A stretch of 42,560 nt of DNA from a virus (Duplodnaviria > Caudoviricetes), in IMG/VR virus record IMGVR_UViG_3300030330_000262, positions 1-42,560 of that record; one strand, given 5' to 3'. A program made the translations under genes and the position numbers. Positions 11,763-37,791 of this stretch are shown in pieces. Under the pieces are notes generated by a model. It was not told where the DNA came from, ran no database searches, and worked only from the letters and a program-made list of their open reading frames with translations. Within the stretch, counting starts at the first letter, position 1. The number at the start of each line of letters is the position of its first letter.

Positions 11763-12032
11763 ATGGCTATGAAGAAAAAAGGCTACCGTGCTGGTGGCAA
11801 AGTTAAAAAAATGGCTAAAGGTGGCGCTGCTGGCGGCAAGAAAATGAGAAGAATGGCTAAAGGTGGTGCTGCTGGTGGCAAAAAGATAAGAAGAATGTCC
11901 AAGGGTGGCGCTATGGGCGGCAAAAAAGTCAGAAGAATGTCTAAAGGTGGAACCGCTGGCGGCAAGAAAATGACTGTTGCACAACTTCGTTCTGCTGCTA
12001 AAAAGCTAGGATACAAAGTATCTAAAGCATAA
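11763..12032 (+). CDS. Basic repeat protein
   Basis: AAGGAG RBS; four copies of a 14-aa M(A/S)KGGxxGGKKxRR repeat. Confidence 0.75.
   Translation: MAMKKKGYRAGGKVKKMAKGGAAGGKKMRRMAKGGAAGGKKIRRMSKGGAMGGKKVRRMSKGGTAGGKKMTVAQLRSAAKKLGYKVSKA
11811..11972 (+). repeat. Coding tandem repeat, 42 nt x about 4
   Basis: Unit starts at 11811, 11853, 11895 and 11937. Confidence 0.85.
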
Positions 12033-32826: not shown

Positions 32827-33408
32827 TTATATCCATTGAATGCTAGGTTGGTCTACGTCTTTTTTAAACCTGTTTATTTTCCAAACAAACCATGCCATAG
32901 CTGTCTTACCGCTACCATACCAAGCTGATTCGTGGTCGCCTCTAATTAAAGTTAGTCTTTTGGTATGGACCAGAACAGTGTCTGGTGGCGTGTGTTGAAA
33001 AATCTCCTCATATCTTTTCTGACCTTCGAGAAAAGCTAGACGAAGTAGAAAAATAAATCCCTCTCCATCTTTGCTTTGTTCTTGCAGTTTATACGCATGT
33101 TTAACAAATTCATTTGCCAACTTGTACGGGGGGTTGGTCACAATCCACGGCGCTAAACTCTTTTGCTCCATTAGAAAGTCTATGTTGCGTAAATCACCAT
33201 AGCCACGGTCCACAAGATCAGTGCTGTATGTTTTTATACTATGATCTTTTAAAACCTCTGATATATGCCCCTCACCACAAGCAGGCTCCCATACATCATA
33301 CGATGTTTGATTATTATTGCATAACAACCACGGGCAGCAATCAATCATCTTCTTGGTTGCGTCAGGCGGGGTTGGATAATAATCGTCTTTTTCTCTGCTG
33401 CTATCCAA
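32827..33408 (-). CDS. DNA amino-methyltransferase (probably N6-adenine)
   Basis: DYYPTP, VWEPACGEG (motif I), IVTNPPY (motif IV), LLRLAFLE. Confidence 0.85.
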   Translation of the reverse strand: MDSSREKDDYYPTPPDATKKMIDCCPWLLCNNNQTSYDVWEPACGEGHISEVLKDHSIKTYSTDLVDRGYGDLRNIDFLMEQKSLAPWIVTNPPYKLANEFVKHAYKLQEQSKDGEGFIFLLRLAFLEGQKRYEEIFQHTPPDTVLVHTKRLTLIRGDHESAWYGSGKTAMAWFVWKINRFKKDVDQPSIQWI

Positions 33409-36080: not shown

Positions 36081-36839
36081 ATGGCTGTAAAGAAAACAAA
36101 TGATTCAATTAGCATTCCTGTGATCAAGCAGGGTACGATTAAATTACGTTTGATTGGTCAAACGCCAATGTACTTTAATAGTATGTCGTCTAAAGCTAAG
36201 AGAGACTTACTCGTTGGCGCAGGTCGTAAGACTGCGGCTGAGAAAAAAGAGATCAAGCATAATCCAGAGCAAGAGTTTATTGACTCTATGCACACGCAAA
36301 TGAAGGGCGATACTTTACTGTGTTTCCCAGCGGCTGGTGTAAAAGGTGCAATGGCTACTGCTGCGCTTGAAACTGCTGGTGTAAATAAAACTAGCGTAAA
36401 TAGACTAATCTTCTTACCGCAAACCAATATTAATATTTGGGGTAAGCCGTACCTTAAAATTGACGTGGTTCGCTCTGCTGATATGAACCGCACACCAGAT
36501 ATGCGTACTCGCGCTTATCTTCCTAATTGGTGTGCGGAAGTAGAGATTAGGTTTGCTACGCCTAACTTTAGTGCGATGTCTATTTCGTCTTTGGTGCAGA
36601 ACGCTGGTCAGTTAGTTGGGCTGGGTGATTTCCGCCAAGAAAAAGGCAGAGGTTCTTTTGGTACGTTCACCATTACAGGATCTGAAGACCTTGGTGATCA
36701 TAAAGACTTCTGGGATGAAATGATGGAGGAAGGTCGCGCAGTGCAAGAATTGTCGCGAGATAATCCAGAATGTGCTGATGAAGAAACAGCAGAACTGATG
36801 CAGTTCTTGCAAGAAGAGCGGTTGCGGAGGGCTGCTTAA
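36081..36839 (+). CDS. Stand-alone Cas7/RAMP-like protein; putative effector of an RNA-guided system
   Basis: N-terminal strand IKLRLIGQTPM; LCFPAAGVKGAM (cf. RAMP IPGSSxKG); C-terminal Gly-rich loop VGLGDFRQEKGRGSFGTF; GGAGG RBS. Confidence 0.75.
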   Translation: MAVKKTNDSISIPVIKQGTIKLRLIGQTPMYFNSMSSKAKRDLLVGAGRKTAAEKKEIKHNPEQEFIDSMHTQMKGDTLLCFPAAGVKGAMATAALETAGVNKTSVNRLIFLPQTNINIWGKPYLKIDVVRSADMNRTPDMRTRAYLPNWCAEVEIRFATPNFSAMSISSLVQNAGQLVGLGDFRQEKGRGSFGTFTITGSEDLGDHKDFWDEMMEEGRAVQELSRDNPECADEETAELMQFLQEERLRRAA

Positions 36840-36846
36840 ACTATTA

Positions 36847-36866
36847 GGCGGGGGTTTCCCCCCGCC
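36847..36866 (+). promoter_or_regulatory. GC hairpin at the 5' end of the array
   Basis: Perfect 8-bp stem GGCGGGGG-TTTC-CCCCCGCC; no U-tract. Confidence 0.6.
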
Positions 36867-36872
36867 ACGGGT

Positions 36873-37260
36873 TGCGGTTATCTATGGATAGGTCTGGCAT
36901 GTCGAGGCGGTTATGGAGAGGCATGGCACGAAAAGTCATGTTTCTTTGTGGTAAGTCTAGGCGGTTGAGTCATGTTGCGTTTCGGTTGGGTCTCGTAAGG
37001 TTCGGTTGGGTAAGTTCTGGCGGTTAAGGCTGGATAGGCAAGGCGGGGTAGGGTCCGTCACGGCACGGCTAGGCGCAGTCAGGTTGGGCTGGGCGAGGCG
37101 GTTGAGTTGAGTTTTGTTATGCCGAGATGCGGCTTGGTGGGTTTAGGCGGTTTTGGTCTGATATGGTCTGTCGCGCTAGGGTTAGGACGGGCTTGGTACG
37201 GCACGGCGGTTTCGGTATGTTCAGGTCTGGTAGGGTTACATGGGGTTGGGCATGGCGGTT
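36873..37260 (+). ncRNA. Non-coding array of GGCGGTT-delimited units made of G(G/T)Y-NN pentamers (putative guide RNAs)
   Basis: GGCGGTT at 36906, 36960, 37019, 37097, 37146, 37205 and 37254 (TGCGGTT at 36873); spacings 33, 54, 59, 78, 49, 59, 49; 5-nt periodicity inside units. Confidence 0.8.
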
Positions 37261-37281: not shown

Positions 37282-37791
37282 ATGAGTAATTTTGCGAAAA
37301 AAACAAAACAGAGGATCATTGATGGGTATCTGCAAGCTACTGGGCTAAACATTTACAAGCCAGATGAATTTGTTGATTGGTTAGCTGAACAGCCCGACCA
37401 TGAGGCGTATGATGCTTTTTATGGCATGGATGACAGTGTAGCGGCTCGTAACTGGCGCATCGATAAAGCGCGGCAGATGGCAAGCGGCTTACGGATTGTT
37501 GTTAAACAAGAGGATGTAACGCAGAGCGAAGTTATTTCGATTAAGGTCACTGAATATCCGGCCTACATTTCACCTGTTGCTACACGAAAGTCAGGCGGTG
37601 GTTATGAGCGGTTTGACCCTAAAGATGAAGCAGCGCAGCAAGAGTTAAGAAAACAGGCTGGAGTTTATTTAGCGGGATGGCTTGGTCGTTTTAGGGGCGC
37701 GGCTGAAAATGCTGGTTTAGACTTAACGTCAGTTGAATATATTGTTAGGGTTTTAAGAGACGATAAAGATGAGAAGCTAGAGGCTGGATAA
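37282..37791 (+). CDS. Hypothetical protein; candidate accessory of the RAMP/array system
   Basis: AAGGAG RBS directly after the last repeat; HEAYDAFYGMDDSVAARNWRIDKARQM motif. Confidence 0.75.
   Translation: MSNFAKKTKQRIIDGYLQATGLNIYKPDEFVDWLAEQPDHEAYDAFYGMDDSVAARNWRIDKARQMASGLRIVVKQEDVTQSEVISIKVTEYPAYISPVATRKSGGGYERFDPKDEAAQQELRKQAGVYLAGWLGRFRGAAENAGLDLTSVEYIVRVLRDDKDEKLEAG

Follow-up and report, generated by a model that had tools for sequence, protein, structure and literature searches.

VIPR is a CRISPR-related, RNA-guided DNA-binding system first described in 2026 (10.64898/2026.04.26.720920). In the type II VIPR of Escherichia phage SUSP1 (PDB 36pp), the Vipr residues R138, D177, W178, and R179 are described as reading GGY (10.64898/2026.04.26.720927), and a recombinase is reported to be silenced through its active-site codons (10.64898/2026.10.15.759431). 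Staggered vrRNA arrays appear in the legend of fig. S18 of the first report (10.64898/2026.04.26.720920), the text of which lists natural targets only for types II, III, and V and for no staggered array; from metagenomes, 99 clusters of VIPR-like arrays are reported (10.64898/2026.10.21.760802). VIPR and staggered arrays are therefore already in print; the target map of the locus described here is unusually complete. This locus lies in a 42,560-base virus record (the whole stretch of DNA analyzed, hereafter the window) and is very probably a phage VIPR with a staggered array, the variable dinucleotides (NN) of which, read with a skip of one nucleotide, match replication and integration motifs of temperate T7-like marine phages, so that the system likely silences rival phages via RNA-guided DNA binding.

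The window carries portal, capsid, tail, lysozyme, Sak4, Cas4-domain exonuclease, and primase genes, and its portal protein shares 39–51% identity with the portals of HTVC023P-type and CRP-901-type phages. The subset of ORFs scanned in this possibly incomplete record contained no integrase. Unlike class 1 CRISPR-Cas loci, the window showed no repeat-spacer array and no multi-gene cas operon, and its Cas4-domain gene sits in the Sak4/SSB/primase replication module. Two other genes were noted elsewhere in the window, a DNA methyltransferase gene (phrog_799; 32827-33408, minus strand) on the opposite strand to the rest of the genome, and an 89-a.a. ORF (11763-12032) with about four 42-nt Lys/Gly/Ala-rich repeats and no PHROG match, which is possibly a small basic DNA-binding protein.

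The system comprises the vipr gene, the array, and an accessory gene, all on the forward strand. The preliminary description had located the array correctly, with coordinates that left out these two flanking genes. The layout recurs in related IMG/VR loci (65–100% identity), with units present in 74 of 80; five of the six loci without units end within 200 bases of vipr. An accessory gene follows downstream in all 63 loci having at least 1.3 kb available, and the locus thus contains the minimal VIPR set, vipr and an accessory gene in a phage. By contrast with SUSP1, the window array is placed between these two genes. In some relatives (L645, L646, L648, and L650-L652), the accessory gene was seen directly after vipr, with the array elsewhere or absent, and L643 and L645 represent two systems on one contig.

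The vipr gene (36081..36839) encodes a 252-a.a. stand-alone protein with a predicted RAMP (Cas7/Csm3-like) fold, a thumb Arg144, and a G-loop Asp183-Phe184-Arg185. The structure model (pLDDT 74.8) gave 72 Foldseek matches at E < 0.001 (best E 1.2e-5), those listed being CRISPR RAMP complexes, and a best VIA match to 6s6b_I (Z 9.1, rmsd 3.5, 156 residues aligned). The Vipr entry 36pp was absent from the results of both fold searches (the Foldseek library ends in April 2026), and it was the best PDB sequence match of a 73-sequence Vipr profile (E 4.2e-4). Direct alignment of the window and SUSP1 Vipr proteins by hhalign (probability 94.3, E 1e-7) covered the C-terminal 52 columns only and placed SUSP1 R138/D177/W178/R179 on window R144/D183/F184/R185 (numbering checked); SUSP1 H17 and K33, in the N-terminal half, fall outside this alignment. 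Among the 73 homologues, R144, D183, and R185 are invariant and F184 occurs in at least 90%, and homologues account for 1,292 of 1,797 candidates overall. Judged by sequence, the window gene is a Vipr homologue keeping the GGY-reading residues of SUSP1, with the thumb Arg and the G-loop Asp-aromatic-Arg conserved between the two. The model thus predicts a RAMP fold with thumb and G-loop, as in the Cas7/Csm3/Cmr4 backbone of class 1 systems, standing alone outside a CRISPR locus as expected of VIPR. At 252 a.a., including a helical C-terminal extension, the protein is to be compared with the about 20 kDa typical for VIPR.

The accessory (vap-like) gene (37282..37791) encodes a 169-a.a. protein modeled (pLDDT 85.8) as helical with a long beta-hairpin. 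It has 255 homologues and many invariant Arg, Glu, and aromatic residues, and its atlas neighbors are unnamed viral clusters. No Foldseek match was found at E < 0.001, the best VIA score (Z 5.0) fell on the helical hairpin, and no Pfam family was assigned at cut-off; these searches demonstrate neither a new fold nor a function. It showed no similarity to Vap1, the accessory protein of SUSP1 (hhalign probability 0.3, one Vap1 sequence compared).

The array itself is marked by GGCGGTT junctions at 36906, 36960, 37019, 37097, 37146, 37205, and 37254, with a variant (TGCGGTT) at 36873, delimiting units of 54, 59, 78, 49, 59, and 49 nt. There, pentamers of the forms GGC-GG and GTY-NN overlap by one G. 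The preliminary description had parsed these units as pentamers of a fixed triplet followed by a variable dinucleotide, the 78-nt unit containing a single 4-nt module (which proved to be GATA), and its hand counts over 64 pentamers proved exact (60 starting with G, 61 with a pyrimidine at position 3, 53 fitting G(G/T)Y, and 33 exactly GGY). Variation is concentrated in positions 4 and 5 as it had stated, with entropies of 0.43, 1.39, 1.14, 1.93, and 1.98 bits at positions 1–5 of the window array and 0.34, 1.30, 1.19, 1.94, and 1.96 bits in the units of relatives. The period of five is borne out by 48 lag-5 G(G/T)Y pairs versus 8.0±2.7 (maximum 19) in 2,000 dinucleotide-preserving shuffles; elsewhere in the genome, the score per 400-nt window is at most 7 (median 1). 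Among the related IMG/VR loci, 288 of 339 distinct units are 5n+4 long and share a G at GGCGGTY. The tract thus has the form expected of VIPR, an adjacent non-coding run of 9–16 pentamers with a constant GGY-like triplet and hypervariable NN, the degenerate GTY triplets being also found in SUSP1 guides. Successive guides overlap by 1 nt with no predicted tail or ribozyme between units, as expected of a staggered array.

Directly 3′ of the vipr stop codon lies a G+C hairpin without a U-tract (36847..36866; identified from sequence and folding), of a kind also present in the leaders of relatives. Terminator prediction did not call a terminator at this hairpin, which may form a 5′ boundary or stabilizer of the array RNA. 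It is followed by a short, nearly constant leader unit of six modules, one of 4 nt (36873..36905), kept in L003, L005, L006, L007, L017, L029, and L031 (86–99% Vipr identity). The array closes on a terminal GGCGGTT junction (37254..37260), 28 nt upstream of the accessory gene start. Units abut directly and, unlike SUSP1 type II guides, the window guides have no conserved 3′ pseudoknot tail or other per-guide structured tail; the array gave no Rfam match at E up to 1, and its whole-array folding z was -2.0. A promoter scan stayed at chance level, and ORFs across the array reach at most 72 a.a. RNA runs contained 6% of words, and two RNA libraries gave three short contigs at a depth of about 3, which may be DNA and were given no weight in judging expression or habitat. 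In one 156-nt contig from RNA-library run X2 (window 36960-37021), the unit preceding guide 2 differs from that of the window and is of a kind found in L003, L005, and L006, consistent with unit reshuffling.

We decoded the guides by scanning the NN string of each unit with one wildcard between pairs. The preliminary description had proposed that the NN pairs carry targeting information and had suggested contiguous and gapped (NN.NN.NN) searches against shuffled controls; the former idea is upheld, and among the searches only that with a 1-nt gap succeeds, the other skips (0, 2, and 3) giving background, as do shuffled guides. This non-contiguous code, in which skip 0 equals background, distinguishes the array from class 1 CRISPR-Cas. 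In the protein-gene targets, the skipped base is the codon wobble position. Guide 1 (36906..36959, 10 NN) reads the class II ribonucleotide reductase motif MDMTNISVNY in the sense orientation; about 160 stretches were hit, 80 of the 120 fetched falling in one ribonucleotide-reductase cluster with 26 sites at 20/20, and the closest cultured proteins to these reductases come from Roseobacter phages CRP-3 and CRP-212. Guide 2 (36960..37018, 11 NN) reads, in antisense, the tyrosine-integrase catalytic motif RFHDLRHEAIS; about 190 stretches were hit, 119 of 120 fetched carry the motif FHD(L/F)RH(E/D)AI, and seven sites match at 22/22, including four bases omitted from the scan pattern. A recombinase active site is accordingly targeted in both this system and that of SUSP1.

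Unit 3 (37019..37096) starts with three non-matching modules, with no match to the target bases upstream of its site, followed by a second 1-nt register shift and a 12-NN guide (guide 3, 37037-37096). The 12 pairs after the 4-nt module read, in sense and with the skip on wobble, the T7-type endonuclease I motif KGSPTTYAQWCD/E, with 35 of 45 hits in one T7 endonuclease I cluster and six sites at 24/24. Guide 4 (37097..37145, 9 NN) gave 90 hits in seven clusters, 79 of them in one terminase-large-subunit-like cluster matched at 18/18 on the motif DDFIDALGY, and 15/18 on the HDD..DA motif in the phages G004 and G011. Since no second window guide matches the terminase-like loci, this assignment is tentative. 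Guide 5 (37146..37204, 11 NN) is directed in antisense, again with the skip on wobble, at the motif VNRYLASISK of a second integrase. Its first 18-base pattern found no exact match in viral contigs and a relaxed pattern found two, at 19/22 in the phages G003 and G343; in metagenomes, all six hits lie in the second integrase at 20/22, and five of these six loci adjoin the first integrase, matched by guide 2 or its variants. Guides 2 and 5 thus point at tandem integrase genes in L656-L660. In the target contexts printed for the guides, GG does not follow the last paired bases, and the junction pentamer thus seems to go unread. For most guides of the clade, no target was identified.

We assessed the code with guides that had played no part in selecting the targets, namely the 240 of 265 clade guide strings unrelated to the five selecting patterns. 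On 17 podovirus genomes or stretches (625 kb), 21 of these guides gave 37 sites under skip 1, versus 4, 2, and 4 for skips 0, 2, and 3 and 4, 1, and 7 for three shuffles. The 37 sites are not independent events and reduce to about 14 motifs, along with two hits that are probably due to chance; 33 are in wobble phase (by longest ORF), 30 are sense with the mRNA, and the motifs lie in RNA polymerase, ssDNA-binding protein, endonuclease, DNA polymerase, exonuclease, helicase, reductase, and integrase. Held-out guides showed no excess on integrase-selected genomes (3 sites versus 1–11) or tRNA-selected genomes (1 site versus 0–5), and hits there thus name motifs rather than the actual rival. On a 3.34-Mb set that includes the selecting families, 28 of 153 guides of at least 10 NN reached 90% with skip 1, a level that none of them attained under skip 0, under skip 2, or when shuffled. 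As for self-targeting, none of the 265 guides reached 85% in the window under skip 1, and 272 units run on 833 kb of the clade's own neighborhoods gave no skip-1 excess (14 versus 5–12 at 85%).

The best-mapped target is G343 (41 kb, 98% complete), with 9 sites versus 0, 1, and 1 in controls; three window guides match it at 18/20, 21/24, and 19/22, and G345 likewise had 9 sites versus 0, 1, and 0. In G003, which is almost the same as G343, the genes present include two integrases, a T7-like replication module, a reductase, a thymidylate synthase, and its own head genes, and this gene content identifies both as a temperate T7-like phage. We considered whether they could be satellites, given two virion protein families in common with the window, and rejected this reading since they encode their own terminase, portal, scaffold, and capsid and are therefore full phages, a difference from the SUSP1 case. 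Integrases are reportedly common in marine Autographiviridae (625 of 1,143 populations; PMC12361551). Two tyrosine integrases in tandem, together with a tRNA-Pro attP-like piece, characterize the temperate phages G003/G343 (L584, L661) and L655-L660; in G003/G343, the head module joined to the T7-like replication module has the window's portal family, phrog_1216. Another record, the 57-kb G001 (L579-L581), has two sets of terminase, portal, and scaffold genes and may be two joined phages. Relatives in cellular genomes comprise 14 loci, 12 of them in Alphaproteobacteria by record title, which suggests a marine alphaproteobacterium as the probable host; in a Rhodobacteraceae-level test, guide 2 at up to two mismatches matched none of 301 genomes of G039's family.

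Guide 6 (37205..37253, 9 NN) departs from the protein-gene pattern and matches, in antisense, tRNA-Arg genes at their 5′ end and D-arm together with two bases upstream. About 310 stretches were hit, and 117 of 121 fetched matches overlap tRNA-Arg (103 UCU, 9 CCG, and 5 other), 78 of them at 18/18. Ten variants persist down to 69% Vipr identity. Chromosomal tRNA-Arg is matched in all four genomes carrying relatives (16–18 of 18), and exact sites occur in 5/41 and 5/41 sampled genomes of two alphaproteobacterial groups (0 with reversed-pattern controls), most of them in intact tRNA-Arg(CCG or ACG) genes. Three of 11 regions show a duplicated tRNA 5′ half, as at an attachment site, with a spacing of 166–185 bp and no integrase-like gene within 5 kb; in the viral locus L270, an integrase adjoins the tRNA. 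Four loci from different alphaproteobacterial genomes (L665, L666, L674, and L675) share a common flank before tRNA-Arg(CCG), and the 5′-half duplications in three of them resemble remnants of small integrating elements.

Several candidate links between guide 6 and the rival phages were rejected. The tRNA-Arg is not the attachment site of G343, the attP-like piece of which is tRNA-Pro; the tRNA-Arg(UCU) of the reductase-bearing phages G002, G004, G010, and G011 matches at only 12–14 of 18; and the phages carrying an exactly matched tRNA-Arg(UCU) have hardly any proteins in common with the other targets and are therefore probably not real rivals. An attachment-site lock seems to us slightly the likeliest role, though short of even odds, with silencing of the host tRNA and action on a rival-phage tRNA each a little less likely.

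Units of the array turn over, with phages of 98–99% identical Vipr holding two to four of the window's six units. Common units mostly keep a conserved order (293 concordant versus 34 discordant pairs) and, unlike class 1 CRISPR-Cas, there is no leader-end polarity of new units, common and unique units having the same mean position (p 0.77). Conserved order without end polarity suggests exchange at junctions rather than polar addition. Homologous units differ at 414/6,674 NN and 1,379/10,011 scaffold positions, counts which carry no weight as the pairs were chosen by NN likeness. The preliminary description had held identical NN strings in diverged relatives to speak against information in the NN; such identity was seen in part, some guides being kept at 69–91% Vipr identity. 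We attribute this persistence to conserved targets, since several variants follow synonymous codon alternatives. Guide variants track the six-codon Ser/Arg/Leu alternatives, switching codon families with the encoded motif kept, while other variants change or break the residue.

By analogy with SUSP1, we propose that vipr, the array, and the accessory gene would be co-transcribed and that one Vipr subunit would bind each pentamer, with G(G/T)Y buried and NN presented. The filament would then pair with double-stranded DNA, every third target base being flipped out and a triplex formed, and once bound would block transcription without cutting. The array anatomy suggests that the 1-nt register shift at GGCGGTT would end one filament and start the next; with one G common to both pentamers, a filament would be unable to stay in register there, and single guides would thereby be delimited. 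Such guides would comprise 9–12 pairs, giving 18–24 read bases over 27–36 bp, and the accessory protein may aid silencing or processing. As the bases that are read encode catalytic motifs and the wobble bases are passed over, a rival could presumably escape only via a residue change or the six-codon Ser/Arg/Leu alternatives. Silencing of the integrases would hold a resident prophage in place, and shutting off the endonuclease, reductase, and replication genes would arrest a rival that is co-infecting or has been induced.

The step from binding to repression is where the best surviving alternative enters, namely that the same parts and code operate, with the accessory protein converting binding into destruction of the target, which has been proposed for the nuclease-bearing VIPR types III and V. 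The lack of similarity to SUSP1 Vap1, the invariant Arg, Glu, and aromatic residues, the constant placement of the accessory gene after the array, and the location of most targets inside genes rather than promoters would all suit this reading, and since the protein is unlike Vap1, repression rather than cleavage is itself borrowed from another type. However, the accessory protein belongs to no Pfam family at cut-off, SUSP1 guides are reported to repress from inside coding sequence as well (10.64898/2026.10.15.759431), and the sites of guide 6 on alphaproteobacterial chromosomal tRNA-Arg genes fit binding as easily as cutting. We therefore consider target destruction improbable. Pairing of the guides with RNA (messenger or tRNA) rather than DNA, a reading invited by closest solved folds that are type III and VII RNA-targeting RAMPs and by guides 2, 5, and 6 being antisense to their transcripts, is very unlikely, given that guides 1 and 3 and 30 of the 37 held-out sites are in mRNA sense and so cannot pair with mRNA, and that SUSP1 VIPR is reported to bind double-stranded DNA (10.64898/2026.04.26.720920; 10.64898/2026.04.26.720927). 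Finally, we dismiss the reading that the array is a low-complexity satellite in drift or a misinterpreted short ORF and that its matches arose by chance, given the great size of the databases searched. Although 18-base gapped patterns do match unrelated sequences (as in the seven clusters of guide 4) and about one third of the fetched guide 1 hits lie outside the reductase cluster, this reading is refuted by the 22/22 and 24/24 matches in catalytic motifs in wobble phase, the held-out excess under skip 1 only, and the G343 controls, with the short array ORFs, a period of 5 that does not fit codons, and the constant linkage to a RAMP gene also standing against it.

Silencing through RNA-guided DNA binding thus remains our preferred reading, and the locus agrees closely with the published staggered VIPR, as far as its text and legend allow comparison (10.64898/2026.04.26.720920). 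Both have a stand-alone RAMP and an accessory gene in a phage, pentamers of a fixed triplet plus variable NN, 9–12 repeats per guide, and a 1-nt overlap; the 1-nt skip on wobble, targets on both strands in rival phages, and absence of self-targets are likewise predicted here by computation. Another staggered GGY/NN array was noted in the Gordonia phage UmaThurman (NC_031249.1; L680:2109-2450), annotated as hypothetical protein gp40 and following gp39, a 30%-identical Vipr homologue; homologues of the protein occur in other Gordonia and in Mycobacterium phages as well. The UmaThurman system could serve as a cultured test bed.

Of the six units in this single staggered array, four decode to named gene motifs over 20–24 read bases, one decodes to tRNA-Arg, and one, tentatively, to a terminase. 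This decoding shows that the 1-nt skip code also holds for tail-less units, the first and last NN included, and the compact multi-guide array with its 252-a.a. effector is a candidate multiplex silencing tool. The words "tRNA" and "marine" are absent from the main text of the two preprints analyzing VIPR targets, the data files of which may contain cases; a guide against tRNA-Arg would be a target class absent from that main text and comes as a surprise. The 49 distinct arrays provide a dated series in which guides are gained, lost, reordered, and substituted in step with codons, and through it VIPR guide acquisition becomes testable. On the speculative reading that follows, the turnover of a codon-phased motif repertoire between phages with 99%-identical Vipr would imply a route for writing target sequence into the NN. 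It is possible, though we hold this with low confidence, that this marine phage clade is widespread and that its staggered array is a rapidly rewritten, broad-spectrum blacklist of catalytic motifs (integrase, endonuclease I, polymerases, and reductase) that disables an entire lineage of temperate T7-like rivals, accompanied by a long-kept guide against the 5′ half of chromosomal host tRNA-Arg acting as an integration-hotspot lock or a tRNA switch-off.
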